In this document: piece by piece, positions 21,709 through 45,800 of the stretch
Layout: each line of letters opens with the position of its first letter
Numbering within the stretch: the stretch's first letter is position 1
Assembly: GCA_963809695.1 (NCBI GenBank)
Contig: CAWEKI010000012.1
Location: forward strand, 85,493-149,492
DNA from: an uncultured Bacteroidota bacterium
GTDB lineage: Bacteria; Bacteroidota; Ignavibacteria; UBA10030; UBA6906
Direction: 5' to 3'
Length of the DNA stretch: 64,000 nucleotides
Position numbers and translations under genes: made by a program
Notes under the pieces: model-generated
The model's input: the letters and a program-made list of their open reading frames with translations, nothing else
What the model was told of the DNA's origin: nothing
The model's database searches: none

Positions 21709-22757
21709 ACGTGAAGTACTTTCGGTGCCTCTTGTCCGGCCTGGTTCTTGGTGGCACATGCCTTGCCGTTGCCGCGATGGACACGGTGGTGGTCGATCAC
21801 GGGGGAGGAGGCGATTGTACGTCCATTCAGGCGGCACTCAACGCCATTCCGCAGGAACATGATCGGCAAGTCACGGTCGTCGTCCGGAACGGCCTTTACG
21901 CGGAGAAGGTTTTTATCACAAAGAGCAATATCATCTTCATCGGCGAGGATCGCGACAGCACGAGGATCGTTTTTCCCGAGCTGCGAGAGAACTGGAACCG
22001 AAGCCATTGCGGGAGCGACTGGGGAGCCGGCGTGGTTAATATTGATACCGGCGTGACAGATATTACCATCGCGAACCTGACAGTCTATAACAACTTTGGC
22101 TCGCTGCACAACGCATACAACAAACATCAATTTGCCATCAGGGGGGCCGGGACGCGGATCATGCTTCTCCATTGCGCGGTCATCTCCGACGGGGGAGATG
22201 CGCTTAGCCTCTGGAACAAGGAAAACGGCATGTACTACCATGCGGACTGCACGTTTGAAGGATGGGTGGATTTCGTCTGTCCGCGCGGATGGTGTTACAT
22301 CATCCGGTCGACGTTTTTTGGCCATAACACTCCCAGCGCGAGCATTTGGCATGACGGAAGCGGGAACCGGGCCCAGAAATTCGTGATCCGGGATTCCTAC
22401 TTCGACGGGGTTCCCGGTTTTCCGCTTGGGCGGAATCATCTCGACGCACAGTTCTATCTTGTGAACTGCCGGTTTTCCAGGACTATGGCCGACCGCCCCT
22501 TCTTCCGCCCGCTATCAAGCCCGCGCGAATGGCAATGGGGAGCGCGGCACTACTTCTACCACTGTCATCGCGATAGCGGCGACTTCAGCTGGTTCCGGGA
22601 CAATTTGTCTTCTGCTGAGGGTTCGCCGCGTGCTGAAGACATCAATGCCAGGTGGGCCTTCGATGGGCAATGGGATCCGGAATCTGCAATGCCCTGGACG
22701 ACGGCATCGTTGAAAGCCCGGCCCGGCACACTACCACAACGCGGTCATCATCCATGA
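21699..22757 (+). CDS. pectinesterase (carbohydrate esterase family 8)-like
   Basis: Start at ATG 21699 (MGVNVKYFRCLLSGLVLGGTCLAVAA), overlapping the previous gene by 10 nt. The beta-helix motifs are CE8-like: QFAIRGAGTRIMLLHCAVISDGGDALSLW matches the QAVAL…QDTLY region, and GWVDFVCPRGWCYI matches GTVDFIFG. The text-book QDT motif is substituted by GDA. Confidence 0.7.
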   Translation: MGVNVKYFRCLLSGLVLGGTCLAVAAMDTVVVDHGGGGDCTSIQAALNAIPQEHDRQVTVVVRNGLYAEKVFITKSNIIFIGEDRDSTRIVFPELRENWNRSHCGSDWGAGVVNIDTGVTDITIANLTVYNNFGSLHNAYNKHQFAIRGAGTRIMLLHCAVISDGGDALSLWNKENGMYYHADCTFEGWVDFVCPRGWCYIIRSTFFGHNTPSASIWHDGSGNRAQKFVIRDSYFDGVPGFPLGRNHLDAQFYLVNCRFSRTMADRPFFRPLSSPREWQWGARHYFYHCHRDSGDFSWFRDNLSSAEGSPRAEDINARWAFDGQWDPESAMPWTTASLKARPGTLPQRGHHP

Positions 22758-24031
22758 AACTCAACAAGTATTCGCTTGGCATCGGGGACAGGTTCGGGCG
22801 GGAGGGAGTCCCACAGCTCCGCGCGCTGCAAATGGCAGCGGAGCAGGGAGCCCATGTCACGCCGGTGTGGAACAAATCAAACAGGGAACACATCATCATC
22901 GGTTCTTCCCCCGGTGACACGCGAGGCGAAGCTGACGATGCGGTAAACGCGCTGGGCTGGCTGGCTCCGTATTTCGTGGACGCGGACCATATTGGCCTTG
23001 CCACGGCCGGGAAGTTCCTGGAGTCCAGCGACTTCTTCACCATTGACGTTACGGACTTCATTGGCGCACCCCCGGCTGCCGATGCAGCCGCCTCGTTTGT
23101 TGCTGCCATGGAGCGCTTCAAGGGTGACCTGGGGGTCCCGGGTATTGCGGGGCCCCTTCACATCGACAACGACCTGCTCGAACGGGTCGCGCGAAAATAC
23201 CTCAGTGCAGTCAGTGCCGCGGGAGAAGTCTATCGGCACATCGCACGCGCCCGCGCGGCCGACACGTTTATCACCGAAGTGTCCCTCGACGAAGCAGAAG
23301 AGCCTCAGACCCCCGCGGAATTGCTGTTTATCCTTGCGGCGATCTCCATGGAACACATACCGGTCCAGACCATCGCCCCCAGGTTCTCCGGCGCTTTTCT
23401 CAAGGGGGTCGACTATGTGGGCAACGTTGCTACGTTCGCACGAGAATTCGAGCAGGATGTCGCCGTCATCGCATTCGCGGTGAATACTTTCGATCTCACG
23501 TCGGACCTCAAACTCAGCGTCCATTCCGGCAGTGATAAATTCTCGTTGTATCCTGAAATGCGCCGGGTCATTCGTAAATTTGACGCGGGGCTCCATCTGA
23601 AGACCGCCGGAACGACATGGCTGGAAGAACTGATCGGCCTGGCCGAAGCGGGAGGCGAAGGGCTGCAGGCGGCGAAGCATGTCTATGCCGCGTCATGCGA
23701 GCGTTATGACGAATTGTGCAAGCCTTACCTCTCGGTCATCAGCATCGATAAATCCAGACTTCCGCGTGTGCAGGATGTGCAGGTGTGGACCGGCCAGGAT
23801 TTCGCCGGAGCATTGCGGCATGACCAGGCCAAAGGGACGTACAACAGAGATTTCCGGCAACTGCTTCATGTCGGGTACAAAGTGGCAGCGGAAATGGGCC
23901 CCCGGTTCACTGCACTTTTGCGGGAGCACTGCGCCGTGATTGCACGCAACGTGACCGAGAATTTGTACCACCGCCATATCCTCCCGTTGTACGTCGGTGA
24001 AGACCATCACCAGAGGCGGACCCAATCATGA
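22754..24031 (+). CDS. uxaE: tagaturonate/fructuronate epimerase (UxaE family)
   Basis: The ATG at 22754 overlaps the CE8 stop (ATGA). The motifs LKLSVHSGSDKFSLYP and HLKTAGTTWLEE match the Thermotoga UxaE blocks SLHSGSDKFSVYP and HVKTAGTSYLEA. It lies immediately upstream of uxaC. Confidence 0.7.
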   Translation: MKLNKYSLGIGDRFGREGVPQLRALQMAAEQGAHVTPVWNKSNREHIIIGSSPGDTRGEADDAVNALGWLAPYFVDADHIGLATAGKFLESSDFFTIDVTDFIGAPPAADAAASFVAAMERFKGDLGVPGIAGPLHIDNDLLERVARKYLSAVSAAGEVYRHIARARAADTFITEVSLDEAEEPQTPAELLFILAAISMEHIPVQTIAPRFSGAFLKGVDYVGNVATFAREFEQDVAVIAFAVNTFDLTSDLKLSVHSGSDKFSLYPEMRRVIRKFDAGLHLKTAGTTWLEELIGLAEAGGEGLQAAKHVYAASCERYDELCKPYLSVISIDKSRLPRVQDVQVWTGQDFAGALRHDQAKGTYNRDFRQLLHVGYKVAAEMGPRFTALLREHCAVIARNVTENLYHRHILPLYVGEDHHQRRTQS

Positions 24032-25452
24032 CAATTTCTTACATTGACAACGATTTCCTGCTCTCGACAAACCAGGCCCAGGAACTCTACCACGGCTATG
24101 CCGAGCGACTGCCCATTATCGATTACCACTGCCATCTCTCGCCGGAAGATATCGCCCGGAACAGGCAGTTTGACAACCTGACGCAAATCTGGCTGAAAGG
24201 AGACCACTACAAGTGGCGCGCGATGCGTGCGTGCGGCGTGAGCGAGCGCTACATTACCGGCGAAGCCTCCGACTGGGAGAAATTCGAGCGCTGGGCGGAA
24301 ACGGTCCCCCGGACGCTGCGTAATCCGCTCTACCACTGGACTCACCTGGAGCTGAGACGCCCTTTCGGGATCCAGGACCGCCGTCTCAATGTGTCGACGG
24401 CGAAAAGCATTTGGGAGGAATGCAATGCAAAACTTGCCCAGCCGGACTACTCAACCCGGGGCATCCTTCACCAGATGAACGTGGAGGTCGTGTGCACCAC
24501 GGACGATCCGGTGGATTCGCTGGAGCACCACGTGAGAATGGGGAGCGACCCGGCCCTCAAAGTCCATGTGATTCCGGCGTTTCGTCCCGACAGGGCGATG
24601 GCCGTGGAAGCACCCGCGCGCTTTGTCTCCTATGTGCGGTCGCTTGCGCGTGCGGCGGATATGGAGATTCTGCACTTTCATGATTTTCTTGCAGCGTTGA
24701 GAAAGCGGCACGACTACTTCCACCAGTGCGGCTGCCGGCTGTCCGACCATGGCCTCGAAACAATGCTTACGGAACAGTATACCGAGGAGGAACTTCGAAC
24801 CGCCTTCGATCGTCTCCTGCAGGAAAAAAGCCTTGGGCAAGGCGAGATCCTCAAGTTCAAATCCGCCATGCTTTATGAATTTGCCGTCATGGATTGGGAA
24901 AAAGGATGGACCCAGCAGTTTCATCTGGGCGCCTTGCGGAACACGAATTCGCGCATGATGCGCACGCTCGGGCCCGATACCGGGTTCGACTCCATCGGCG
25001 ACTTTGAGATTGCGCGCCCTCTGGCACGGTTTCTCGATCGCCTGGACAACGGGAACCGGCTTGCAAAAACCATCATCTACAATATCAACCCGCGCGACAA
25101 TGCGGTGATGGCGTCCATGATCGGTAACTTTCAAGATGGAACCGTGCCGGGCAAGATTCAATATGGACCCGCATGGTGGTTCCTGGACCAAATGGACGGC
25201 ATGAAAAAGCAAATGGAAGCCCTCTCCAACATGGGGCTTCTGAGCCGGTTCGTCGGTATGGTCACGGATTCGCGGAGCTTTCTTTCCTATCCCCGGCACG
25301 AGTACTTCCGACGGCTTCTTTGCAGCCTCCTGGGCGAGGACATGAAGCGGGGGCTCGTCCCCGGTGACATGGAGCTCGTAGGCAACATGGTGAGCGATAT
25401 CTGCTACTTCAATGCGAAGCGCTATTTCGGCTTCACGGAGGAATCTGCATGA
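24028..25452 (+). CDS. uxaC: uronate (glucuronate/galacturonate) isomerase
   Basis: Near-collinear with E. coli UxaC: LPIIDYHCHLSPEDIA, IWLKGDHYKWRAMRACGV, NPLYHWTHLELRRPFGI, LLSRFVGMVTDSRSFLSYPRHEYFRR. ATGA overlap with uxaE. Confidence 0.95.
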   Translation: MTISYIDNDFLLSTNQAQELYHGYAERLPIIDYHCHLSPEDIARNRQFDNLTQIWLKGDHYKWRAMRACGVSERYITGEASDWEKFERWAETVPRTLRNPLYHWTHLELRRPFGIQDRRLNVSTAKSIWEECNAKLAQPDYSTRGILHQMNVEVVCTTDDPVDSLEHHVRMGSDPALKVHVIPAFRPDRAMAVEAPARFVSYVRSLARAADMEILHFHDFLAALRKRHDYFHQCGCRLSDHGLETMLTEQYTEEELRTAFDRLLQEKSLGQGEILKFKSAMLYEFAVMDWEKGWTQQFHLGALRNTNSRMMRTLGPDTGFDSIGDFEIARPLARFLDRLDNGNRLAKTIIYNINPRDNAVMASMIGNFQDGTVPGKIQYGPAWWFLDQMDGMKKQMEALSNMGLLSRFVGMVTDSRSFLSYPRHEYFRRLLCSLLGEDMKRGLVPGDMELVGNMVSDICYFNAKRYFGFTEESA

Positions 25453-26204
25453 ACGCACTCTTCGACCTCACAGGAAAGACCGCTGTCGTCACCGGCGCGA
25501 GCACAGGGCTGGGCATGGGGATGACGCTTGGCCTGGCTTCTGCAGGTGCGGACGTTCTTCTCGTGGACCGCGTGCAGAGCGAGGAAGTCGCCAGCAAGGT
25601 CAGGGACATGGGCAGACGTGCAGCCACGCTCACCGTTGACCTGATGAAGATGGCATCCATTCCCGTCGTTGTGGAAAAAGCCATCGCGGAATATGGCAAG
25701 ATCGACATCCTGGTCAACAATGCAGGGATTATTCGCCGCGCGCCGGCATTGGAGTTTTCGGAGAAGGATTGGGACGAGGTAATGCAGCTGAATGCCAAGG
25801 CCACGTTCTTCCTGACACAGGCAGCCGCGCGCGACATGCTGCTGCGCAAGTACGGCAAGATCATCAACATCGCGTCGCTGCTGGCATTTCAAGGGGGCAT
25901 CATCGTGCCGTCGTACTCCGCGAGCAAGGGAGCTGTTGCACAGGTGACAAAAGCCCTTGCCAATGAGTGGGCACCGCATGGCATCAGGGTGAACGCCATC
26001 GCGCCCGGGTACATGGCAACGAACAATACCAGGGCTTTGCGCGAAGACCCGGTCCGTTCCAGGGCTATCCTCGACCGGATCCCCGCGGGCCGCTGGGGCG
26101 TGCCGGAAGACCTGCAGGGTGCTGCCGTCTTCCTTGCCTCCGCCGCATCTGATTATGTCACCGGCCACGTCCTTGCGGTAGATGGAGGCTGGCTCGCAAG
26201 ATAA
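25449..26204 (+). CDS. kduD: 2-dehydro-3-deoxy-D-gluconate 5-dehydrogenase (SDR)
   Basis: 251 aa, alignable along its whole length with E. coli KduD: GKTAVVTGASTGLGMGMTLGLA, IDILVNNAGIIRR, LEFSEKDWDEVMQLN, NAIAPGYMATNNT, RIPAGRWG, DGGWLAR. ATGA overlap with uxaC. Confidence 0.9.
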   Translation: MNALFDLTGKTAVVTGASTGLGMGMTLGLASAGADVLLVDRVQSEEVASKVRDMGRRAATLTVDLMKMASIPVVVEKAIAEYGKIDILVNNAGIIRRAPALEFSEKDWDEVMQLNAKATFFLTQAAARDMLLRKYGKIINIASLLAFQGGIIVPSYSASKGAVAQVTKALANEWAPHGIRVNAIAPGYMATNNTRALREDPVRSRAILDRIPAGRWGVPEDLQGAAVFLASAASDYVTGHVLAVDGGWLAR

Positions 26205-26222
26205 TGCTGTCTCAAAAGGCGA

Positions 26223-27068
26223 TTGGAGAAGATTATGGAAGTACGCTACCTGCCAAATGACGTCTCGTACCAGCGAATGACCACGCGGGAGCTCCGCGAC
26301 GCGTTCGTCCTGGAGAATCTCTTTGAGGCCGGCCGGATCAGGATGGTCTACGCGGACAGCGATCGCGCAATCGTGGGAGGCGCTGTCCCCGTCACGGGAA
26401 CGCTGCCGTTGCTCGCGACACAGAAGGAAATGGCCGCGGCGCATTTCAATGACCGTCGCGAGGTCGGGATCATGAACATCGGCGGCGAAGGAACAGTGAG
26501 CGTCGACGGCACGGAATACCCGCTCGGCGCGAAGGACCTGCTCTACGTTGGAAAGGGAGCGAAGAGCATCGAGTTATCCAGCCGGGATGCCGGAGCGCCG
26601 GCCGTGTATTATCTCGTATCGTTCCCGGCCCACACCACCTACCCCACGGCAGCAATGCGCTTCCGCGACGCGGAGCGCTCTCCGCTTGGGACCGCGGGCG
26701 CGGCCAACAAACGGACGATCCGCAAGTATGTGCACGGCGGAGGGATCAAGAGCTGTCAGCTCGTCATGGGGATGACGCAGCTCGACGAGGGGAGTGTCTG
26801 GAACACCATGCCTCCGCATACCCATCAGCGCCGGTCGGAGGTCTACCTCTATTTCGATCTCGATCCGGATGGCATCGTCGTCCATCTGATGGGCAAACCG
26901 CACGAGACAAGGAATCTTATGCTGCGCAACCGGCAAGTGGCACTCTCGCCTCCATGGTCCATCCATGCCGCGGCAGGGACGAAGCACTATGCGTTTGTGT
27001 GGGCGATGGGAGGGGAGAACCAGGAATTCTCGGACATGGATGCGGTGGCGCCGGACGAAATTCTCTAA
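26223..27068 (+). CDS. kduI: 5-dehydro-4-deoxy-D-glucuronate (4-deoxy-L-threo-5-hexosulose-uronate) ketol-isomerase
   Basis: 281 aa, collinear with E. coli KduI: VGIMNIGGEGTVSVDG, LYVGKGAK, PAHTTYPT, CQLVMGMTQL, WNTMPPHTHQRRSEVYLYF, SPPWSIHAAAGTKHYAFVWAMGGENQEF. Confidence 0.9.
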   Translation: MEKIMEVRYLPNDVSYQRMTTRELRDAFVLENLFEAGRIRMVYADSDRAIVGGAVPVTGTLPLLATQKEMAAAHFNDRREVGIMNIGGEGTVSVDGTEYPLGAKDLLYVGKGAKSIELSSRDAGAPAVYYLVSFPAHTTYPTAAMRFRDAERSPLGTAGAANKRTIRKYVHGGGIKSCQLVMGMTQLDEGSVWNTMPPHTHQRRSEVYLYFDLDPDGIVVHLMGKPHETRNLMLRNRQVALSPPWSIHAAAGTKHYAFVWAMGGENQEFSDMDAVAPDEIL

Positions 27069-27109
27069 ATCACGATCGATTCACGTGTCACTTTCTGAAG
27101 AGACAACTA

Positions 27110-28420
27110 ATGGACCAGCCGGACAAGGCGCTTCCCACAGTTGGACCGCCGCTCAAAGCCGCCAGTGCCGCGGCCGCCGTGGGGCACTATCGCTGGACGA
27201 TCTGCAGCCTCCTCTTCTTCGCGACGACCATCAATTACCTTGACAGGAACATCCTCGGGATCCTTGCCCCTACCCTGCAAAAGGAGATTGGCTGGACGCC
27301 CGTGGAGTACGGGTACATCACCACTGCGTTTCAGGCGGCGTATGCGCTGGGACTGGCCTGGTTTGGGTGGTTCATTGACCGGTATGGGACCAAGATCGGT
27401 TATTCCCTTTCTCTGATCGGATGGACGATCGCCGCCGCGGCCCATGCGCTGGCACAATCGGTGTTTGGCTTCGGCGTGGCACGTTTCTTCCTCGGCCTGA
27501 GCGAAGCCGGCAACTTCCCCGCCGCAATCAAGGCCACTGCAGAGTGGTTTCCGAAAAGGGAGCGTGCGCTGACAACGGGGATCTTCAACTCCGGAGCGAA
27601 CATCGGGGCCGTCGTTGCAGCCGCCGTGGTTCCGTGGCTCACATTGACGTACGGCTGGAGAGCCGCCTTTATCGCGACCGCCGCAACCGGATTCATCTGG
27701 CTTATCTTCTGGGTTCTGATGTACCAGAGACCGGAGGAATCCCGGAAGCTCTCAAAAAAGGAATTAGACTACATCCTGAGCGATCCGGAGGAAGTTGTCA
27801 ATGAGAAAATTCACTGGATGAAGCTTCTCCGGTACCGGCAGACGTGGGCCTTCGTCCTGGGAAAGTTCCTGACCGATCCTGTCTGGTGGTTCTACCTCTA
27901 CTGGCTGGCGCTTTACCTCAACAATAATTTCGGGCTCTCTCTCTCGGGCCTTGCCCTGCCGCTTATCGTGATCTACACCATGACGAGTGTGGGGAGCATC
28001 GGCGGCGGGTGGCTCTCGGGCGCAATGATCAGCCGCGGCGTCCCGGTCAACAAGAGCCGGAAGCTTGCCATGCTCGTTTGTGCCCTGCTCGTCCTTCCCG
28101 TTGTCTTTGTCGGAGAGATCAAGGACATGTGGGTTGCCGTCCTGATCATCGGGCTGGCTGCAGCGTCCCACCAGGGTTGGTCGGCGAACATCTTCACCAC
28201 GGCGTCGGATATGTTCCCCAAAAGAGCCGTCGGGTCGGTCGTAGGCCTCGGCGGACTCGCCGGATCTGTCGGCGGCATGATCTTCATGACCCTGTCAGGC
28301 TATCTCGTCCAGACAACGGGGAGCTACATGGTGCATTTCATCATCTGCGGATCGGCCTACCTTATTGCCCTCGGAGTGATGCAGCTGCTGACCTTCAGGG
28401 CCAAACCAGTGGAGGTGTAA
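27110..28420 (+). CDS. exuT: hexuronate transporter (MFS, ExuT family)
   Basis: Start at ATG 27110 (MDQPDKALP…). 12-TM MFS protein with an ExuT-like N-half (INYLDRNILGILAPTLQKEIGWT…YGTKIGY…AEWFPKRERA). Confidence 0.8.
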   Translation: MDQPDKALPTVGPPLKAASAAAAVGHYRWTICSLLFFATTINYLDRNILGILAPTLQKEIGWTPVEYGYITTAFQAAYALGLAWFGWFIDRYGTKIGYSLSLIGWTIAAAAHALAQSVFGFGVARFFLGLSEAGNFPAAIKATAEWFPKRERALTTGIFNSGANIGAVVAAAVVPWLTLTYGWRAAFIATAATGFIWLIFWVLMYQRPEESRKLSKKELDYILSDPEEVVNEKIHWMKLLRYRQTWAFVLGKFLTDPVWWFYLYWLALYLNNNFGLSLSGLALPLIVIYTMTSVGSIGGGWLSGAMISRGVPVNKSRKLAMLVCALLVLPVVFVGEIKDMWVAVLIIGLAAASHQGWSANIFTTASDMFPKRAVGSVVGLGGLAGSVGGMIFMTLSGYLVQTTGSYMVHFIICGSAYLIALGVMQLLTFRAKPVEV

Positions 28421-28424
28421 TGTC

Positions 28425-29258
28425 ATGAACCTTGAGGAAATCAACAGGCTCTACGATTTTGCCGGCAAGACAGTCCTTCTTACGGGAGGTGCAGGCGTGC
28501 TCACCGGCGAGATCGCGTGCGCACTTTTCGGGTGCAACGCGAACATTGCCATCATCGATCGAGACCCGGCACTGGCCGACACCGTCATGAAACGCATTGA
28601 GCCGGTCGGGGACCGGGCAGTCGTGATATACGGAGATGTGCTTCAACCCGAGACCATGCAGAGGGCGCTGGAGCAGGTCATCACGGCGTACGGCAAGGTG
28701 GATTTCCTGGTCAATGGCGCCGGGGGAAACAATCCCAAAGCCACAACGACGCCTACGACGACATTTTTTGACCTGCCTCAGGATGCGCTTCGGTTCGTGT
28801 CGGACCTCAACCTGCTCGGAACCATCATACCGTGTCAGGTGATCGGCAAGCACATGGCTGAGCGGAAAGAAGGGGTCATCCTGAATATTTCCTCCATGAA
28901 TGCGTTTCGCCCTCTGACGCGGATCCCTGCATACTCGGCGTCCAAAGCGGCCGTCACGAATTTCACGCAGTGGCTCGCTGTATACATGGCACAAGAGATC
29001 TCGCCCAGGATCAGGGTCAATGCCATTGCCCCCGGCTTCTTCCTGACCAATCAGAACCGCTTCCTGCTGATCGATAAGGAGAGCGGAAAAGAAACGGTCC
29101 GTGGACGGAAGATCCTTGATCACACGCCGATGGGACGTTACGGGATGCCGGAGGATCTGCTGGGCACCGTGTTGTGGCTGCTGTCGCCTGCATCGAATTT
29201 CGTGACCGGCGTAGTCATCCCGGTCGATGGCGGGTTCTCCGCCTATAGTGGAGTGTAA
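28425..29258 (+). CDS. SDR-family oxidoreductase, probably fructuronate/mannonate reductase (UxuB-like, short-chain type)
   Basis: 277 aa with a Rossmann TGGAGVLTG motif and the SDR catalytic pattern (NISSMNAF…YSASKAAV…). It sits between exuT and gnd in the hexuronate operon. Substrate assignment is by context. Confidence 0.6.
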   Translation: MNLEEINRLYDFAGKTVLLTGGAGVLTGEIACALFGCNANIAIIDRDPALADTVMKRIEPVGDRAVVIYGDVLQPETMQRALEQVITAYGKVDFLVNGAGGNNPKATTTPTTTFFDLPQDALRFVSDLNLLGTIIPCQVIGKHMAERKEGVILNISSMNAFRPLTRIPAYSASKAAVTNFTQWLAVYMAQEISPRIRVNAIAPGFFLTNQNRFLLIDKESGKETVRGRKILDHTPMGRYGMPEDLLGTVLWLLSPASNFVTGVVIPVDGGFSAYSGV

Positions 29259-29276
29259 ACAGAAGGAGGAGGTATC

Positions 29277-30685
<1,409 letters not shown>

Positions 30686-30689
<4 letters not shown>

Positions 30690-31975
30690 ACAACGGCAAT
30701 GCAAGGACGGGACGCATGAACAATCTTGTGGGAGCAGGGTCATTTGAGAAACCGTTGACTCCTGCCGAGATCCGCGCGATCTGCACGGAGTCTATCGGAC
30801 GGCTCAGTCTTGACGGGAAACGTGTCCTCGTGCTTATTCCCGATCATACACGGCACGCTCCTATCGATCTGTTTTTCCATATTCTCTACGACCTGCTCGG
30901 GAGCCGGGTCAGCGCGCTGGATTACCTGGTCGCAACCGGGACTCACCAGGCAATGGAGATGGAACGGATCTATAGGCACGTGGGAATTGACGCTCAAAAA
31001 CATCAGCAGACCTTCCCAAAGGTCAGATTCTTCAATCATGTGCACGACGGCCCGAATGACCTGACGATGCTCGGGCTCATCCCTTCGGAGGAAATCCGGC
31101 GCCTCACCGGCGGATTGTTCAGTCAGGATATTGCCGTGACGATCAACCGGCGGGTGCTGGAATACGACCAGGTGGTGATCGTGAGCCCTGTCGTTCCACA
31201 TGAAGCGATCGGGTTCTCGGGAGGGAACAAGTACTTTTTCCCCGGTATCGGAGGTATCGACATCATCCAGACCTTTCACTGGCTTGCGGCCATCATCACC
31301 AATCCGCTGATCAACGGCGTGAAGGACACACCGACCAGGGAGGTCATCAACAGAGCGGCCTCGATGCTGCACGTTCCCACCCTCTGCTTTGCTTTTGCCG
31401 TGGATGACCACGACAGGCTGGCGTGTCTTTATGCCGGGGATCCAAAAGAGGCCTGGTCGGGTGCGGCTGATTACTCGGCCAGGATGCACATCACATACTG
31501 GGAAAAACCCGTTGCGCGGATTCTGGCGGTCACGCCTCCCATCTACGAAGAACTCTGGGTCGGGGGAAAGGCGATGTACAAACTTGAACCGGTCGTAGCC
31601 GAGGGCGGCGAGCTCATCATCTACGGGCCCCAGATCCGGGAGGTGTCATTCGTGCACGGCGAGCAGATCCGGCGCGTGGGCTATCATGTGCGGGACTATT
31701 TCGTCAAGCAATGGGACCGGTTCTGTAACGAGCCCAAGCTCATCCTGGCACACTCCACGAATGTACGGGGCATCGGCGAGTTCGACGAATCCGGAGAAAA
31801 GCCGCGTATCGCTGTGACTCTTGCGACCGGAATTCCCGAGGACGTGTGCCGGGGCATCAACCTGGGGTATCAGGACCCCCGGTCTATCGACGTGGATGCA
31901 TGGCGCCGGCAACAGAACGATGACATGCGTGTGGTGGAGAACGCCGGACAGGTCCTGTACAGGCTGCAAGCGTAA
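30686..31975 (+). CDS. LarA-like nickel-pincer-nucleotide-dependent 2-hydroxyacid racemase/epimerase family protein (DUF2088 N-domain)
   Basis: 429 aa. The start overlaps the gnd stop (ATGA). The LarA-type DxTR motif is present (VLVLIPDHTRHAPIDL), as is the Gly-rich lysine-containing block (PHEAIGFSGGNKYFFPGIGGIDIIQTFH), with overall LarA-like collinearity. Confidence 0.65.
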
Positions 31976-32006
31976 TTGTAACCACCTACTAACCGCGAGG
32001 ATACCT

Positions 32007-33092
32007 ATGGCATTGCACATTCATCCGGAAAAAGACACCCAATTCGACCTTCTTGCCCTTGGGGAGTGCATGATCCGCCTGAGTCCCCCCGGACATCAGC
32101 GGATCGAACTCACTCCCTACTTTGAAGCATACGCCGGCGGCGGCGAGTACAATGTGGCCTATGCCCTGGCCCGCTACGGCATGCGCACAAGCTGGGTGTC
32201 CCGTTTGGTGGACAATCCGCTCGGCCATTTTATCAAGAACCATGCGCGCACAAGCGGCATGGATATCAGCGAGGTCGTCTGGGTTCCGTACGACGGGTCC
32301 GGCCGCGCTGACCGGATCGGGCTCAACTTCACCGAAGTGGGCATGGGTGTGCGTGCGAGCGTGACTATGTATGACCGCGGGCATACGGCTGTGGCGCACA
32401 TGAAAGCAGGAGAGGTGGATTGGAGCAGGATTTTCTCTCAGCGCAAAGCCCGCTGGTTCCATACCGGCGGCATCTTTACAGCCCTGAGCGATGGGTGCGC
32501 GGATGTGGCGCTCGAGGCGATGAAGGCGGCCCACGATGCCGGGACGGTGATCAGCTACGACCTGAATTTTCGAAGTAAACTCTGGTCAAGCAAAAAGGCG
32601 ATCGAAGTCACAAAGAAACTGGTCCCTTACATCGACGTGCTGATCGGGAACGAGGAGGACTTCCAGAAAGTGCTCGGCTTCGAAGTCGAAGGGACCGATG
32701 CGAGCCTCACGTCGCTTCCTATCGAGGGGTATAAGAGAATGGTTGAAAAAGTCGTGAAGACGCACCCGCACATTCAGGCGGTCGGCACGACTCTGCGGGA
32801 AGTGGTCAGTGGATCTGTCAACAATTGGTCGGCGATTATGTATTATGACGGGCGGTTCTACGAGTCCCGGCGGTACGAGCGGCTGGAGGTGGAAGACCGG
32901 GTGGGAGGAGGAGATGGCTTCTGCAGCGGCTTCGTCTACGGGCTCCTGCACGGCATGGCCCCTCAGGAATGTGTGGATCTTGGCTCTGCCCATGGGGCGT
33001 TGCTGCAGTCCACACGCGGGGATACGAGCATGGTCACGATGGAAGAGACCATGCATGTGATGAAAGGGGGGAGTGCTCGCATCAAGCGATAA
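32007..33092 (+). CDS. kdgK: 2-dehydro-3-deoxygluconokinase (PfkB family)
   Basis: 362 aa. GECMIRLSPPGH…YAGGGEYNVAYALARYG matches the KdgK N-terminus. The PfkB C-terminal anion-hole motif is present (DRVGGGDGFCSGFVYGLL). Confidence 0.8.
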   Translation: MALHIHPEKDTQFDLLALGECMIRLSPPGHQRIELTPYFEAYAGGGEYNVAYALARYGMRTSWVSRLVDNPLGHFIKNHARTSGMDISEVVWVPYDGSGRADRIGLNFTEVGMGVRASVTMYDRGHTAVAHMKAGEVDWSRIFSQRKARWFHTGGIFTALSDGCADVALEAMKAAHDAGTVISYDLNFRSKLWSSKKAIEVTKKLVPYIDVLIGNEEDFQKVLGFEVEGTDASLTSLPIEGYKRMVEKVVKTHPHIQAVGTTLREVVSGSVNNWSAIMYYDGRFYESRRYERLEVEDRVGGGDGFCSGFVYGLLHGMAPQECVDLGSAHGALLQSTRGDTSMVTMEETMHVMKGGSARIKR

Positions 33093-33115
33093 AAGCGCCC
33101 ACAGAATGAATTAAA

Positions 33116-34033
33116 GTGACACTGAAAGGAATCCATACCGTGACCGCGATAACAAGAGAAGCTCTGAAAGCCTTCCAGCCGCAGCATGAACGGTTCATCG
33201 GCTTTGACTCTGATGGCTGTATCTTCGATTCGATGGAATTGAAGCACAAGGAATGCTTCATCCCCAATATCATCAAATATTACAATCTCCAGCCTGTGTC
33301 GAAGTATGCCCGCCAGGCAGCAGAATTTGTAAACCTGTATTCTTTCTGGCGCGGAACAAACAGGTTTCCGGCTCTGGTGAAGACCTTCGAACTGCTCAGA
33401 GACTGGCCGGAAGTGCAGCGCCGCAGGGTATCGCTCGCTGATTGGGCCCCCATTCAGGAGTTCATTGAGTCGGCCTCTGCGCTCGGCAACCCGGCATTGA
33501 AGGAGGCAGTGGCAAAGTCCGGAAACGGCGTTCTGAAACTCACGCTCGAGTGGAGCGAAGCGGTGAACCGGGATATTGAAGCCATGGTAAAGGGATTGCC
33601 CCCATTTCCCCTTGTCCGGGAAAGTCTGAAGAAACTTCAGGGGCGTGCGGACATGATGGTGGTCTCGGCGACGCCGGCGGAGGCGCTGCGGCGGGAATGG
33701 GTGGAGCACAAGATCGATCAGTACGTGGCGCTCATCGCCGGACAGGAGCTGGGGAAGAAGGAAGAGCAACTTGGCCTGACCGCGTCCGGTAAATACGCTT
33801 CAGGGCACATCCTCATGGTAGGAGACGCACTGGGAGATCTGAAAGCGTCACGCTCTGCCGGCGCTCTGTTCTACCCGGTCCTTCCCGGCAAGGAGGACGA
33901 GTCCTGGAAACTCTTCCATGATGAAGTGTGCGAAGAGTTCCTTGCAGGGAAATACACCAGGGAAAGCGAAGCAATGCATCTCGCGGCGTTTGAGAAAGCG
34001 CTGCCTAAGGTTGCGCCGTGGATGAAGGCGTGA
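33116..34033 (+). CDS. HAD-superfamily hydrolase (putative sugar-phosphate phosphatase)
   Basis: GTG start. HAD motif I is GFDSDGCIFDS and motif IV is MVGDALGDL. Last gene of the operon. Substrate unknown. Confidence 0.55.
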   Translation: MTLKGIHTVTAITREALKAFQPQHERFIGFDSDGCIFDSMELKHKECFIPNIIKYYNLQPVSKYARQAAEFVNLYSFWRGTNRFPALVKTFELLRDWPEVQRRRVSLADWAPIQEFIESASALGNPALKEAVAKSGNGVLKLTLEWSEAVNRDIEAMVKGLPPFPLVRESLKKLQGRADMMVVSATPAEALRREWVEHKIDQYVALIAGQELGKKEEQLGLTASGKYASGHILMVGDALGDLKASRSAGALFYPVLPGKEDESWKLFHDEVCEEFLAGKYTRESEAMHLAAFEKALPKVAPWMKA

Positions 34034-34064
34034 ATCATCAAACTTCATATGTAAGGAAGATCGT

Positions 34065-35222
34065 ATGATTCGGATGTGCAGAAGTATTCTTGCCGGGGTG
34101 GTCTTGTGTATGGCTGCCCCGCTTTTCGCGGGTGAGGGAGTTGTGGTCACTGTCAGGAATCCGTCGACGCTTCCGCGGGTGAGCGAAACTGTCGAAGTGC
34201 AGTTGGCGGACCTTCTGGCGCTTGACTCCCTGCTCGGGAAAGGAAACGTCGGGGTCAGAGACCAGGCGAGCGGAGGGCAGCTCGTGGTGCAGGTGACGGA
34301 CGAGGAGCTGCTGTTTCAGTCGGACTTCGCCGCTGGAGAGACGAAGGCGTTTCTGGTAGAGACAGGAGAACAAGCCGGGAAGGGTGTCGTTTCGAAAGTG
34401 GATGGTTTTTTTGTAACGCCGCGCGAGGACTATGCATGGGAGAACGACCGGATCGCCTTTCGCATGTACGGGCCGGCGCTCGCGGCGGAAGTCAGCAACG
34501 GTATCGACGTCTGGACGAAACGGGTTCGCGGCCTGATTGTTCGCAAGTGGTACGAGGCGGACGCGAAAAGCGGCACCGGGAATTACTATCACACTGACCG
34601 GGGTGAGGGGGCGGATTTCTTCGCGGTGGGTAAGACGCTCGGCGCAGGCGGATGCGGGATTTGGTACATGGATAGTCTCTACCAACCAGGCGTGTTTTCG
34701 TCGTACAGGACCCTGAGCAACGGACCAATCAGGACATCGTTTGAGTTGACCTACACCCCATGGAACGTTGGAGGAAAGAGACTGACGGAGCGGTTGCGCA
34801 TATCGCTCGATGCCGGCCGGAATCTCAACACGATCCAGGTCGCGTTCTCCGGCGTCGAGCCGGGGGATTCGCTGCTGATCGCTTGCGGTCTGGTCAAGAG
34901 GAAGGGTGTGACCATCCACATTTCCGACAACGGGTCACGGGCGGCCCTCTGGGGGCCGACGAACGATGATCCTGCGAACGGCTCGCTCGGCACCGGGATA
35001 GTCCTGCTTCCATCCTCCGTCGTGGGGACGCGCGCAGACAGCATCCAGGTCCTGGTGCTTGCGCGCATGGACGGAGGGGAGTCATTCACGTACTGGGCCG
35101 GTGCCGGATGGACCCGCAGCGGAGATTTCGCCAATGCCAATGCCTGGGACGAACACCTGGGAAATTTCTCGACCATGCTTGCCGAGCCGCTCGAGATCAC
35201 TGTGGCATCCCGCCGCGATTAG
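34065..35222 (+). CDS. secreted hypothetical protein (possibly DUF4861 family, commonly found in pectin loci)
   Basis: 385 aa with a signal peptide (MIRMCRSILAGVVLCMAAPLFAGEG). All-beta-looking sequence with a conserved-looking YAWENDRIAFRMYGPAL block. Family name is from memory, not searched. Confidence 0.45.
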   Translation: MIRMCRSILAGVVLCMAAPLFAGEGVVVTVRNPSTLPRVSETVEVQLADLLALDSLLGKGNVGVRDQASGGQLVVQVTDEELLFQSDFAAGETKAFLVETGEQAGKGVVSKVDGFFVTPREDYAWENDRIAFRMYGPALAAEVSNGIDVWTKRVRGLIVRKWYEADAKSGTGNYYHTDRGEGADFFAVGKTLGAGGCGIWYMDSLYQPGVFSSYRTLSNGPIRTSFELTYTPWNVGGKRLTERLRISLDAGRNLNTIQVAFSGVEPGDSLLIACGLVKRKGVTIHISDNGSRAALWGPTNDDPANGSLGTGIVLLPSSVVGTRADSIQVLVLARMDGGESFTYWAGAGWTRSGDFANANAWDEHLGNFSTMLAEPLEITVASRRD

Positions 35223-35303: not shown

Positions 35304-35332
35304 TTGACAAAAACGAGTCGTGTTGCTATATT
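35304..35332 (+). promoter_or_regulatory. sigma70-consensus-like promoter upstream of TonB-dependent receptor gene
   Basis: TTGACA (35304-35309), 17-nt spacer, TATATT (35327-35332), ~125 nt upstream of the ATG at 35457. Confidence 0.5.
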
Positions 35333-35456: not shown

Positions 35457-38400
35457 ATGAACGTTGTACAGCCCATCAGATCGTTTACCCTCTTCGGTCT
35501 CCTGTTTCTCATACCGCTCCAATTGTTCGGGCAAGGAACTCTGCGAGGTACAGTCGTGGACTCTGCGGGGCACAACGCGCTCATCGGGGCGAACGTCTAT
35601 CTTGTGGGAACTGCGCTCGGCGCTGTGACAGACAGGGAGGGGGAATTCAGAATTGTGAAGGTGCCGCAGGGAACATACACGCTTCGGTTCTCCTACCTCG
35701 GATATCAGACGCGGGAAATTCCCATCACAGTCACGCCCGACCTCACAATCCCCGTGTACGTCAGCCTGTTGCAAGGCATGGTGGAGGGGGAAGAGGTCAC
35801 GGTCACGGCCCAGGCTCGTGGTCAGGTTTCCGCCATCAACCAGCAGATCAGCTCATCGACGATCATCAACGTCATCTCTGAAGAGAAGATCCAGGAGCTC
35901 CCTGATGCCAATGCCGCCGAAGCGATCGGTAGGCTTCCCGGCGTTTCCATCACACGGTCGGGGGGAGAAGCCAACAAAGTCATACTTCGCGGCCTGAGCG
36001 ACAAGTTCACGACCGTCACGGTCGACGGCATCAAGATTCCTCCCACGGACGCTGACTCGCGCGGCGTAGATCTCAGCATCGTGTCCCAAGGATCGCTTGC
36101 GGGTGTCGAACTCTTCAAGGCGCTCACCCCGGACAAAGACGCGGACGCCATCGGAGGGAGCATCAACCTGGTGACCAGGAAGGCACCGTCGGAGCGACTC
36201 CTGAGGTTCGATGCGCGCGGGGACTACAATCAACTGATGGACAAATACGGCCAGTACGATTTCGCCCTGCGGTACGGGGAACGATTCTTCAGCGACGTGC
36301 TGGGAGTGCAGGTCCAGGGCAATCTTGAACGGCGCTACAGGAGCAATGAGCGCTATAATCTCACCTACAACCAGGCGTTGCGCGGCGGTACGGACTATGA
36401 GATCAGTGATCTCCTGCCGGAATTCAACAATGAGATCCGGAGGAGAAGCGGAGGAACCCTCCTGCTGGATCTCAACACCCCCGACAGCGGCAGCGTGAGG
36501 CTGAATACCATCTTCAGCCGAACGGACAGGAGTTGGCTGCAATCGCGCAGGGATTATCCGTACGGGTCCGGTATCTCCGTGACCTACCAATATCGCGATC
36601 GGGAGCAGGAGATCAACAACTTCAATACCGCTCTCCAGGGGAAGAACTACCTCGGGGGACTCACGTTTACCTGGGGTGCCTCCTTTGCCCAGTCGAAAGG
36701 GGAATACCCGTACGATTACTACATCGACTTCATCGAGCCATCAATCTTGCAGGGCAGCACCGTCATTTCGGGAATGCGGGGCGACACCCCGGCGCTGAAG
36801 TCAAGCCCTGAGCAGCTGATCCCCTACGCGTTGAACAACTTTCAGGTTGCATACCTTAACGCCGCCTATTATCGCTCGGAGTTGAACCTGGACAAAGAGA
36901 AGACCGCATACCTGGACGTGGCCGGGGAGTATCTGCTGGGCAGCGGGCTTTCCGGGGAACTCAAGGTTGGAGGCAAATACAAATACAAGAACAGGAACAA
37001 GGAAAGCGGAGAGATCTATTCTCCATACTACCTGGGCTATTGGAGAGCGTTCAGCAGGAACGCTGACGGGTCAATACAGAAGAAGGATTTTACCGGTACA
37101 TGGTTTGAGCCGTTCTATCAACGCTTCAAGAGGGACCAAAGCACCCGCAATCCCTTTGCGTTGGATTTTCTTGACCAGCCCCCTGACTACAGAATGCTCT
37201 ACGATACCTACGACCTGCGGCCGATCGTTGACAGGAATGCCCTGCGGCTCTGGTATGAGCTCAATAAGAACGGGGTGGACAGCCTTGGCCGCAGTTACGA
37301 GTACTACACGAATCCTGCAGCCGAGGCGGACTTCTACGACGTCGTGGAACGTGTCGGTTCTGGCTACGTGATGAACACGCTGAACTTCGGACAGGCTGTG
37401 ACCTTCATCGCCGGCCTGCGCGTGGAACAGGAAAAGAATGACTACCGGTCAAAGTTCTCACCCTTCGGACTGGGCGGCTTCCCCATCCCCAGCGGTCCGA
37501 TCCATGACACGACATCGACCTACACTGAGACCATCTGGCTTCCCAACTTTCACCTTACCGTGCGCCCGACGGACTTTGCGATATTCCGCGTTGCTGCCTA
37601 TCGCGCCCTCCTGCGTCCGGACTTCAATATGCGCCTGGAGAAATTCGTTTCCCAGGGCGGCGGCGGCAATCTCAGCCTTCTGCTCGGGAATTCCCATCTG
37701 AAGACCGCGAAGGCATGGAACTATGAGCTCAATGCATCCTTCTTTGGACCTACTTTCGGCTTGATTTCAGCATCGGTGTACTACAAAGAGATCAGCGACC
37801 TTTTCCACATGCTGGATACAGCATCAACCGTTGGAAACAGCCTGATCAACGAACTCGGGATTACCTGGAGTTCACCGCATGCCGGCGCCTATTCCCTCAC
37901 CGCGCCGTACACATCTACCCGTCCGGCGAAGGTCTGGGGATTCGAACTCGAACATCAGGTGAATCTCAATTTCCTCCCCGGTTTTCTCAAGAATTTCGTC
38001 CTCTCGTACAACGGCTCAATTGTCCGGTCCGAGACCTATGTGCTTTCCGTTGACACATTTAACGTGTACGTGAAACAACCGACCGGATTTCCTCCGCCGT
38101 TCGATTCCGTGTCTGTCCCGATCACAAACACCAAGTCCGTTGAGAAAAAGCAGAGCCTTGAGAACCAACCGAAGTTCTACGGCAATATCGCCCTCGGGTA
38201 TGACATTGGCGGATTCTCCGTGCGCCTCTCTCTGTTCCACCAGTCCGCGTACAACATCTCCTTCTCGGCAAGCGGCATCACCGACCGGATCAGCAACAGC
38301 TTCACCCGGCTCGATCTGGCTCTCAGACAGCACATTACCGACCATTTCTCTATCATGCTGAACCTGAACAACCTTACCGATACGGCAGAGCGAACATCCA

Positions 38401-38489
38401 TCCTCAACAGGGTCCAGGGATGGGAGCTCATCAGCTCGAGCGAGCGGTATGGTCTGACAGGAAACCTGGGGGTGAGACTGACACTGTAA
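35457..38489 (+). CDS. TonB-dependent outer-membrane receptor with N-terminal carboxypeptidase-regulatory-like domain
   Basis: 1010 aa with a signal peptide. The CarbopepD_reg-like domain (LRGTVVDSAGHNALIGANVYLVGT…YTLRFSYLGYQT) is followed by a plug (ISEEKIQELPDANAAEAIGRLPGVSITRSGG…ILRGL) and a long beta-barrel. No SusD-like partner follows it. Confidence 0.8.
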   Translation: MNVVQPIRSFTLFGLLFLIPLQLFGQGTLRGTVVDSAGHNALIGANVYLVGTALGAVTDREGEFRIVKVPQGTYTLRFSYLGYQTREIPITVTPDLTIPVYVSLLQGMVEGEEVTVTAQARGQVSAINQQISSSTIINVISEEKIQELPDANAAEAIGRLPGVSITRSGGEANKVILRGLSDKFTTVTVDGIKIPPTDADSRGVDLSIVSQGSLAGVELFKALTPDKDADAIGGSINLVTRKAPSERLLRFDARGDYNQLMDKYGQYDFALRYGERFFSDVLGVQVQGNLERRYRSNERYNLTYNQALRGGTDYEISDLLPEFNNEIRRRSGGTLLLDLNTPDSGSVRLNTIFSRTDRSWLQSRRDYPYGSGISVTYQYRDREQEINNFNTALQGKNYLGGLTFTWGASFAQSKGEYPYDYYIDFIEPSILQGSTVISGMRGDTPALKSSPEQLIPYALNNFQVAYLNAAYYRSELNLDKEKTAYLDVAGEYLLGSGLSGELKVGGKYKYKNRNKESGEIYSPYYLGYWRAFSRNADGSIQKKDFTGTWFEPFYQRFKRDQSTRNPFALDFLDQPPDYRMLYDTYDLRPIVDRNALRLWYELNKNGVDSLGRSYEYYTNPAAEADFYDVVERVGSGYVMNTLNFGQAVTFIAGLRVEQEKNDYRSKFSPFGLGGFPIPSGPIHDTTSTYTETIWLPNFHLTVRPTDFAIFRVAAYRALLRPDFNMRLEKFVSQGGGGNLSLLLGNSHLKTAKAWNYELNASFFGPTFGLISASVYYKEISDLFHMLDTASTVGNSLINELGITWSSPHAGAYSLTAPYTSTRPAKVWGFELEHQVNLNFLPGFLKNFVLSYNGSIVRSETYVLSVDTFNVYVKQPTGFPPPFDSVSVPITNTKSVEKKQSLENQPKFYGNIALGYDIGGFSVRLSLFHQSAYNISFSASGITDRISNSFTRLDLALRQHITDHFSIMLNLNNLTDTAERTSILNRVQGWELISSSERYGLTGNLGVRLTL

Positions 38490-45024: not shown

Positions 45025-45800
45025 GCGGCGCTTCTGTACTCGTATCCGCTGACCTCGCCATGCCGGCTATCCATCGCGCTTTTGGTGTGTGCATGGCAGT
45101 TAATGCACTCAAACGTGCCGTAGTTTGGCTGGGACGGGTGGCAGTCCGTACAAGTGTTCCAGCGTCCAGGCGGGTGGTTGCTGCCGGCGCTGATCGGAAA
45201 GAAGTTGTCATGCGGAAAGAATGCAGCAGGCCGCCATGTCAGCGCACGATGGCAGAGTGAGCAGTCTGTCGAAAATCCCGCCGCAACATGGTTCGGGTTC
45301 GTGGTCGCAAGATATATCTCGCGATGACATGCCACGCACTCGGTTGGCGTACCTCTGAACCGGGCATCGGTGTGACATGATCCGCAAGGAACAGACTGGT
45401 GTATACCCCGCGTGGGAAAATTCGTCTTGTCGTGATCGAAAGAAGCAAGCCAGGACGATGCGTCCGACATATGGCATTCAGTGCATTCGGTGCTGAACCC
45501 TGCCGTGGCATGGTTGATCGCCAATGCTGCGTCATAGTCCTTGCGGTGGCAGGAGATGCAGTCCAATGAAGTCCCTGCGAACCGGAGAGTCGTGTGGCAG
45601 GAGACGCAGGTCGTGTTGCGGTGTTCGCCGCGCAACGGGAATGCGGTCGTATCATGGTCGAATTTGAGCGGGAAGTGAACCGGCGTCCACGACGCAGTCG
45701 TGTGACAATCGGAGCAGGACTGCCCGACAGGTCCATGCGGTGAATCCTGTGCATGGGCGATCCCGGCAAAGGCCACGAGCAAGAGCAGGAACGGCTTCAT
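44985..45800 (-). CDS. decahaem c-type cytochrome (paired-CXXCH type), periplasmic/secreted
   Basis: 271 aa with a signal peptide (MKPFLLLLVAFAGIAHA). It has ten CxxCH motifs: CSDCH, CVSCH, CISCH, CTECH, CGSCH, CVACH, CSLCH, CTDCH, CINCH, CYRCH. They are arranged in an internally repeated unit (C..CH…F.H…FP..G.H….C..CH). Confidence 0.85.
   Translation of the reverse strand: MKPFLLLLVAFAGIAHAQDSPHGPVGQSCSDCHTTASWTPVHFPLKFDHDTTAFPLRGEHRNTTCVSCHTTLRFAGTSLDCISCHRKDYDAALAINHATAGFSTECTECHMSDASSWLASFDHDKTNFPTRGIHQSVPCGSCHTDARFRGTPTECVACHREIYLATTNPNHVAAGFSTDCSLCHRALTWRPAAFFPHDNFFPISAGSNHPPGRWNTCTDCHPSQPNYGTFECINCHAHTKSAMDSRHGEVSGYEYRSAACYRCHPTGGGGN

Follow-up and report, generated by a model that had tools for sequence, protein, structure and literature searches.

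The gene larAH, which lies on the 64-kb stretch of DNA analysed here (64,000 nucleotides, hereafter the window), probably encodes a GntE-type, NPN-dependent C2 epimerase that would interconvert D-mannonate and D-gluconate in a shunt from galacturonate to ribulose-5-P. We hold this assignment, which is drawn from comparisons of sequence, modelled fold and gene context, with moderate confidence, and the most likely role of larAH is to feed galacturonate into the pentose-phosphate pathway. Both the functional branch to which the gene belongs and the kind of pathway around it have been described before, and nothing about it is categorically new. What follows from its placement is the correction of a systematic misannotation, as thousands of database entries in this clade carry the name 'lactate racemase' and are most likely hexonate 2-epimerases. 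The Thermotoga-type shunt for pectin sugars, which runs from mannonate through gluconate to Gnd without mannonate dehydratase, is also widespread, with shunt-type loci found in MAGs of Ignavibacteria/Bacteroidota, Myxococcota, Chloroflexota, Acidobacteriota and Planctomycetota. An initial annotation of this DNA had proposed a C6 sugar acid as substrate, which the apparent position in the GntE branch and the hexuronate operon support. The same annotation had called the exact substrate unknown, whereas the GntE-branch placement and the gntE-gnd context of Thermotoga point to mannonate/gluconate.

Gene, start codon and operon

Translation of positions 30686-31975 on the plus strand gave an uninterrupted longest ORF of 429 aa, whose numbering is used for residues throughout. 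The larAH gene is real and intact, and it is strongly conserved, with more than 100 clusters showing 64-88% identity. The initial annotation placed its ATG over the gnd stop. That overlap does exist in the DNA (gnd TGA, ATTCATGA), but as the start actually used the homologues favour a later codon, and translation probably begins at ATG 30716 rather than at the gnd-overlapping ATG 30686. An identical protein in a public collection, P0001, is 419 aa long and has the N-terminus MNNLVG, which corresponds to nt 30716 (the second Met, M11), and the 419-aa length together with the N-terminus MN.LVG.GS.EKP was found in 57 of the 120 closest homologues. The sequence AAGGA lies 8 nt upstream of ATG 30716, and this codon follows the gnd stop by about 26-27 nt, both in the window and in the gene calls on the contig of P0001. 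The long form was chosen by one JGI caller (P0121).

The gene belongs to a tightly spaced run of genes in one direction (Table 1), in which neighbours are separated by -4 to 47 nt. Two overlaps that look larger (-106 and -115 nt) result from the use of longest-ORF starts, and later true starts are probable there. The SDR, gnd, larAH and pfkB genes are contiguous in the window, an arrangement that is kept in related loci. Around the run is a region for pectin/rhamnogalacturonan utilisation with GH28, GH78 and GH88 genes, a LacI-family gene and TonB-dependent receptors. The sugar-acid operon described by the initial annotation was thus recovered, with uxaE, uxaC, kduD, kduI, the SDR gene and gnd around larAH. 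A scan for promoters and terminators between 18.5 and 36 kb performed no better than on shuffled sequence, save for one promoter-like site matching at 11/12 positions before a TonB receptor. No homologue of UxuA, long UxuB or P-loop GntK was detected in the window or in 80 related loci by tblastn with E. coli queries. No gluconate kinase of either the FGGY or the P-loop type was recognisable in the window, where the sole kinase is KDG-kinase-like, and profile scans of the window revealed no aldarate or idonate genes.

Table 1. Genes of the co-directional run and sequence motifs of the larAH product, in window coordinates
Feature	Coordinates	Strand	Evidence and remarks
Pectinesterase			First of the co-directional run; overlapped 106 nt by the uxaE ORF
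uxaE, tagaturonate-fructuronate epimerase	22652..24031	+	Pfam UxaE 157 bits vs 27; start probably later
uxaC, glucuronate/galacturonate isomerase	24028..25452	+	Pfam UxaC 688 bits; NF002794 641 vs 387
kduD, 2-dehydro-3-deoxy-D-gluconate 5-dehydrogenase	25449..26204	+	TIGR01832 375 bits vs 339
kduI, 5-dehydro-4-deoxy-D-glucuronate isomerase	26223..27068	+	NF002091 389 bits vs 250
MFS transporter, ACS/D-galactonate family, probable hexuronate importer	26954..28420	+	True start probably lies after the end of kduI
SDR-type D-mannonate oxidoreductase (fructuronate reductase)	28425..29258	+	NF006132 357 bits vs 281
gnd, NADP-dependent decarboxylating 6-phosphogluconate dehydrogenase	29277..30689	+	NF006765 713 bits vs 413; Pfam 6PGD
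larAH / gntE-like, NPN-dependent hexonate 2-epimerase (predicted), 419 aa	30716..31975	+	Profile, alignment, model and start evidence
DHTR, aa 53-56: catalytic D53 and NPN-binding R56 (LarA D72, R75)	30842..30853	+	Aligned with TM0442 and LarA of L. plantarum
PHEAIGFSGGNKYFFPG block, aa 171-187: catalytic H172, substrate loop E173-A174, K182 (LarA K184, NPN tether)	31196..31246	+	
ELWVGGKAMYK, alpha11: W291, G294, catalytic K295 (LarA K298)	31550..31582	+	Alignment
LAHSTNVRG, alpha14 substrate-pocket signature: L354, A355, S357, T358, N359, R361	31745..31771	+	Alignment
PfkB-family sugar-acid kinase, KDG-kinase-like 'type A'; candidate KdgK and/or shunt hexonate kinase	32007..33092	+	
HAD-superfamily protein	33140..34033	+	Weak Pfam HAD_2, with no NCBIfam or PDB match; adjoins larAH in 17/80 related loci
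DUF4861 / BT3233-family polysaccharide-utilisation protein	34065..35222	+	Last operon gene; followed by a 234-nt gap and a promoter-like site

Family, fold and active-site residues

In Pfam, the protein matched Lar_N (PF09861) over residues 32-200 with 76.6 bits against a cut-off of 23.3, and its family is large, with at least 7,991 clusters matching at E ≤ 1e-5. The best solved relative by sequence was PDB 4NAR, the T. maritima protein TM0442/GntE2 (E 1.2e-63, 34% identity), to which phmmer aligned it full-length, residues 23-427 on 4NAR 9-422. Matches to lactate racemase structures were much weaker: the T. thermosaccharolyticum apoprotein reached E 5e-11, and the others about 1e-5. An AlphaFold2 model computed from 52 input sequences (pLDDT 82, pTM 0.85) superposed on 4NAR with a TM score of 0.89 and an rmsd of 2.5 Å, covering both domains and the whole chain, compared with TM scores of 0.63-0.74 on structures deposited as lactate racemases. 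The phmmer span and this superposition show that the C-terminal domain is present, even though Pfam reports Lar_N alone, and the protein is a two-domain member of the LarA superfamily (DUF2088 / COG3875). Grouping with DUF2088 proteins that lack the C-terminal domain, raised as a possibility in the initial annotation, is not what the 4NAR alignment and the model indicate, as both include a second domain.

The residues for NPN binding, catalysis and substrate selection have been defined on 4NAR (PMC7583248). For the alignment, the window protein was set against TM0442, LarA of L. plantarum and entries of the supplementary table of PMC7583248. All of the NPN-binding residues were present (R56, K182 and H198, aligned to LarA R75, the tether K184 and the Ni ligand H200), as were the catalytic residues D53, H87, H172 and K295 (LarA D72, H108, H174 and K298), and all seven were invariant in 76 further relatives. 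The motifs on which the initial annotation had relied, DxTR and GGxK, could be located as DHTR at aa 53-56 and within PHEAIGFSGGNKYFFPG at aa 171-187. Its suggested check of the catalytic His pair and the cofactor-binding Lys found H87, H172, K182 and K295 kept in the alignment, and the call of a LarA-family protein of the nickel-pincer type agrees with the Lar_N score above cut-off, the 4NAR match, and the conserved His pair and tethering Lys. Traits of the GntE branch were also found, namely a Glu after the catalytic His (E173), a Trp in alpha11 (W291) and a Gly before the catalytic Lys (G294); the loop expected for this branch is E-[V/S], and the second loop residue of the window protein is Ala, also small.

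Database names of the JGI and PGAP style, such as 'nickel-dependent lactate racemase' and 'lactate racemase domain-containing protein', and a weak match to the NCBIfam LarA model would make the protein a lactate racemase. This identity was rejected and is hardly credible, since the LarA model NF033504, with a cut-off of 460 bits, gave 63.9 bits, the protein shares 23% identity with LarA, the Phe-Phe loop of lactate racemase is replaced by Glu-Ala, and Y294, Q295 and V297 are replaced by W, V and G, while the gene context holds no link to lactate. Compared with L. plantarum LarA (PDB 5HUQ), the window protein is shorter by about 20-30 N-terminal residues, depending on the start codon, and its pocket is polar (E-A, W, G) where that of LarA is hydrophobic (F-F, Y, V); the window gene also lies outside any lar operon.

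Placement within the GntE branch

Sequence places the protein within the GntE branch (Desguin groups 18-20), which has been characterised; its closest group there is group 19 (GntE1), and it is a member of a distinct subclade. Two enzymes of this branch, GntE2 (TM0442) and GntE1/LarAH19 of C. glutamicum, have been shown biochemically to be NPN-dependent D-gluconate/D-mannonate 2-epimerases (Desguin 2020, PMC7583248), and assays of D-mannonate/D-gluconate epimerase activity cover GntE1, GntE2, LarAH15 and LarAH10. Identity of the window protein was 46-48% to non-actinobacterial group-19 members (Planctomyces, Truepera, Roseiflexus, Nostoc), 39% to GntE1, 34% to GntE2 and 23-28% to group 18. Neighbour-joining trees, which were built without bootstrap and in which the published sequences end at about 400 aa, placed the subclade inside or next to group 19 and near group 20, with group 18 outside. 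Members of the subclade are mostly MAG sequences of Ignavibacteria, Bacteroidota and Myxococcota, and also of Fidelibacterota.

A signature of 20 pocket positions was read from the alignment, and is DRHHEAKHTWVGKLLASTNR in the window protein. The typical signature of group 19 is DRHHEVKHVWTAKGLASTHR (DRHHEVKHVW[T/V][A/G]KGLASTH[R/K]); the window protein matches its commonest pattern at 14/20 positions, the signatures of Planctomycete group-19 members at 16/20, and that of group 20, DRHHESKHAWTGKNAAVINR, at 13/20, with 7 differing. The differences from typical group 19 amount to 4-6 positions depending on the member, and include V to A in the loop and G to L and H to N in alpha14. With group 19, the group of GntE1 from Corynebacterium glutamicum, the window protein shares the blocks GFSGGNKYFFPG and GYHVRDYFVKQWDRF as well as a hexuronate-linked context. 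They differ in the loop, which is E-V in group 19 and E-A/T in the subclade, and in alpha14, which reads G..LA.STH in group 19 and L..LA.STN here. A third of the published group-19 loci have larB and larE next to the gene, in contrast to none of the 80 loci surveyed here, although these take in genes of the typical group-19 kind.

The likeness to GntE2 (LarAH20, TM0442) extends from the two-domain fold and the catalytic and NPN residues to the order of functions, fructuronate reductase, epimerase, kinase and Gnd. In Thermotoga the sugar kinase is of COG1070 (pentulose/hexulose) and the regulator is a GntR protein; the window has a PfkB kinase and an upstream LacI-family gene instead. Group 18 resembles the window in its published neighbourhood, which matches the window's gene set of SDR, Gnd, PfkB kinase, MFS, UxaC and KduI. 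Four group-18 members compared have GMANYNK (2) or GFANHNK (2) where the window protein has GFSGGNK, and in each of them the catalytic Lys is preceded by N. None of the NCBIfam NPN models reached its cut-off and all scored far below; the best match was the group 18 hexonate model NF052594, and membership of the group 18 equivalog was rejected at 160 bits against the curated cut-off of 500.

The signature of the subclade is identical to that of none of the assayed enzymes, and Desguin et al. suspected that group 19 prefers a mannonate isomer or an aldaric acid, GntE1 having a KM of 120 mM (PMC7583248). Both points would fit an NPN-dependent 2-epimerase for another acid of the hexuronate network, such as D-altronate/D-allonate, L-gulonate/L-idonate or glucarate/mannarate. 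We regard such a substrate as improbable, given that conversion of mannonate to gluconate is the only one that links the neighbours, UxaE and the fructuronate-reductase-type SDR upstream and the adjoining Gnd, and that the window lacks recognisable aldarate and idonate genes.

Cofactor genes

The initial annotation had stated that larB, larC and larE are missing from the 64-kb window, and the present searches agree. The LarB, LarC and LarE families were not found when 48 of the window's 49 listed ORFs were scanned with Pfam (all except a 95-aa ORF at 29963-30250 on the minus strand), and tblastn with L. plantarum LarB, LarC1, LarC2 and LarE gave no match in the window even at E ≤ 10. A motif search for LarE (SGGxDS), LarC (GxSGDM) and LarB (AGTSD) returned nothing relevant. 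The same four queries, taken from the lar operon of an L. plantarum plasmid, had no match at E ≤ 1e-3 in any of the 80 related loci (±10 kb), while the positive control, LarA, was found in 80/80. In the available part of the published Table S1, the COGs that neighbour groups 18 and 20 do not include larBCE either. For the GntE branch it is therefore normal that larBCE lie outside the neighbourhood, and their absence is less noteworthy than the initial annotation had made it.

Absence of larBCE from 64 kb might also mean that the organism is unable to make the cofactor and that the gene product either works without NPN or is a remnant that has lost activity. This is very unlikely, as the active site is fully conserved along with the gene itself, distance from the cofactor genes is the usual state in the related loci, and the NPN pathway is generally present in genomes that encode LarA homologues, T. 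maritima having its own LarE (PMC11796402). The larB, larC and larE genes are presumably encoded elsewhere in the source genome.

Conservation of the locus

Eighty loci from species-representative genomes, with relatives of larAH at 47-85% identity and up to 10 kb on each side, were surveyed for neighbouring genes. A homologue of the SDR fructuronate reductase was present in 52/80, often directly upstream of larAH, followed by Gnd (42/80), UxaE (33/80) and UxaC (21/80). At least one of these four was found in 70 of the loci, and the remaining ten include several short or truncated contigs. A PdxB-like dehydrogenase adjoins larAH in 23 loci.

The kinase gene beside larAH or gnd was of the PfkB (27 loci), PPi-PFK-like (17) or FGGY gntK-like (4) family; the three are unrelated, and no locus had more than one of them. 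This pattern looks like non-orthologous displacement of a single hexonate kinase function. Two types of PfkB paralogue were distinguished in the loci, the window's being the more KdgK-like, and in 16 of the 27 PfkB loci KduI, KduD and Eda were all missing from the vicinity. By its score, the PFK-like neighbour is a member of the PPi-phosphofructokinase subfamily, and its position suggests that it may act as a hexonate kinase.

Proposed pathway and order of phosphorylation

In the pathway that we favour, the MFS transporter would import galacturonate or glucuronate, UxaC would isomerise them, and UxaE would convert tagaturonate to fructuronate, which the SDR would reduce to D-mannonate. The larAH product would then convert mannonate to gluconate, a kinase would yield 6-phosphogluconate, and the adjacent Gnd would decarboxylate this to ribulose-5-phosphate. 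Because no mannonate dehydratase (UxuA) was found in the window, the larAH product would be the sole consumer of mannonate, and flux would be expected to run towards gluconate. Epimerisation would proceed by transient hydride transfer to NPN through a 2-keto-hexonate intermediate, with NPN tethered at K182 and its Ni bound by H198 accepting the hydride, and with H87 and H172 acting as the acid/base pair. A shunt of the same logic has been proposed for T. maritima (Rodionova 2012, as outlined in PMC7583248 and PMC6978723), where gntE lies between fructuronate reductase and gluconate kinase, with gnd. The window's PfkB is a candidate for the kinase step, although the KduI/KduD branch would in any case require a KdgK.

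Several observations count against the assignment to mannonate/gluconate, among them the identity of only 34-39% to the assayed GntEs, the differences in pocket signature from groups 19 and 20, and the scores of the NCBIfam NPN models far under their cut-offs. For mannonate, KM values of 9-120 mM were measured with the assayed GntEs, and the native substrate may therefore be something other than free mannonate. The lack of a recognisable FGGY or P-loop gluconate kinase in the window also counts against this assignment.

It is possible, though unlikely, that phosphorylation comes first, with the kinase (here PfkB) acting on D-mannonate and the larAH product serving as a 6-phospho-D-mannonate 2-epimerase that supplies Gnd with 6-phosphogluconate. 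Such a sequence of steps has been described in extracts of L. suebicus, which turned mannonate into 6-phosphomannonate and then 6-phosphogluconate, but did not turn free mannonate into gluconate (Valk et al.). The L. suebicus route resembles the one proposed here in leading from mannonate to 6-phosphogluconate and into Gnd after UxaC, UxaE and fructuronate reductase; it differs from the GntE model in placing phosphorylation before epimerisation, and is known in that organism from activities alone. A literature search turned up no follow-up publication on this route. The high KM of the characterised GntEs for free mannonate and the window's want of a canonical gluconate kinase are consistent with prior phosphorylation, as is the tightest linkage of larAH, which is to gnd and to a kinase from one of the mutually exclusive families. 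The PdxB-like dehydrogenase beside larAH likewise belongs to a family that acts on a phosphorylated 2-hydroxy acid.

Other evidence argues for epimerisation of the free acid. GntE1, GntE2 and LarAH15 all epimerise free mannonate in vitro, the kinase gene neighbouring gntE in T. maritima is named gntK, for gluconate kinase, in the literature, and a COG1070 sugar kinase also appears in the published group-20 contexts. The window's PfkB is most like KDG kinase, for which the KduI/KduD branch provides a use. The T. maritima kinase adjacent to gntE is one that we take to be of the FGGY type and characterised as a gluconate kinase. GntE-type conversion of free mannonate to gluconate remains the reading that we favour.

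It is conceivable, though in our estimate unlikely, that the GntE-like subclade, and perhaps the whole GntE branch, is the missing 6-phospho-D-mannonate 2-epimerase of the L. suebicus route. The alternating kinases, which comprise the two PfkB paralogue types, the PPi-PFK-like protein and the FGGY kinase, would then be mannonate (hexonate) kinases, and uxaE, the SDR gene, the kinase gene, larAH and gnd would form a self-contained, redox-neutral module from galacturonate to ribulose-5-P, common among bacteria of soil and sediment. The conserved cassette with its three interchangeable kinase families offers candidate genes for the question of free versus phosphorylated mannonate, which matters for engineering redox-neutral fermentation of galacturonate. 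A homologue of TM0442 was found in the proteome of L. suebicus cells grown on galacturonate (Valk et al.).

Kinases adjacent to larAH or gnd

Among the 80 related loci, the kinase gene found beside larAH or gnd encodes a PfkB protein in 27 cases, a PPi-phosphofructokinase-like protein in 17, and an FGGY gntK-like kinase in four, and two of these families were never found in a single locus. This pattern of one family per locus suggests that a hexonate kinase has undergone non-orthologous displacement. The PfkB proteins of the related loci split into two paralogue types, type A with 70-95% identity to the PfkB of the window and type B with about 40%, and both types are present in five loci (L006, L016, L017, L019, and L025).

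Features of the window and representative genes of the related larAH loci (L numbers)
Feature	Position	Strand	Remark
ORF, 717 aa	window 10138-12291	+	no Pfam match
PfkB, type A	window 32007-33092		window's own kinase
HAD-superfamily protein, 297 aa	window 33140-34033	+	weak Pfam HAD_2 match
Near-consensus sigma-70-like promoter site	window 35304-35332	+	TTGACA, 17 nt, TATATT, extended TG
ORF, 547 aa	window 43381-45024	-	no Pfam match
PdxB-like dehydrogenase, representative	L007:398-1639
PfkB, type B example	L015:11298-12392
PPi-phosphofructokinase-like example	L035:11253-12554
FGGY gntK-like kinase example	L053:11270-12766

Other genes associated with larAH

In 23 of the 80 loci, among them L006, L008, L011, L012, L016-L020, and L022-L025, a gene for a PdxB-like D-2-hydroxyacid dehydrogenase lies no more than 10 kb from larAH, and in many of the 23 it is immediately upstream; none is encoded in the window. 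The substrate of this family is a phosphorylated 2-hydroxy acid, and the dehydrogenase scores 424 bits against NF001309 (4-phosphoerythronate dehydrogenase), for which the cut-off is 434. Homologues of the HAD protein, which matches neither an NCBIfam family nor a PDB entry, adjoin larAH in 17 of the loci, with SDR-HAD-larAH-gnd being the usual gene order in Chloroflexota.

Operon content and boundaries

The operon (21489-35222) encodes KduI, KduD, and a KDG-kinase-like PfkB. No KDPG aldolase, mannonate dehydratase, or altronate dehydratase is encoded across the full 64 kb window, and Eda is found in nine of the 80 related loci. The promoter-like site lies in the 234-nt gap ahead of a TonB-dependent receptor gene (35457-38489), a position that fits an end of the sugar-acid operon at 35222. 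Within the operon, the longest-ORF starts of uxaE and the MFS transporter gene overlap their upstream genes by 106 nt (22652-22757) and 115 nt (26954-27068), respectively, overlaps which suggest that the real starts are probably further downstream; the first residues aligned in Pfam are 30 for uxaE and 87 for the MFS transporter.

Other features of the window

The window probably comes from a member of the FCB group, an Ignavibacteria/Bacteroidota-like MAG. It has a GC content of 57% and encodes SusC-like receptors along with a T9SS sorting domain; the nearest larAH relative in the 80-locus survey belongs to 'Bacteroidetes bacterium CTSoil_037' (85% identity). The 717-aa ORF is flanked by GH116-like and melibiase-like glycosidase genes in a polysaccharide-utilisation region, and the 547-aa ORF adjoins a multihaem cytochrome c gene (44985-45800, minus strand).
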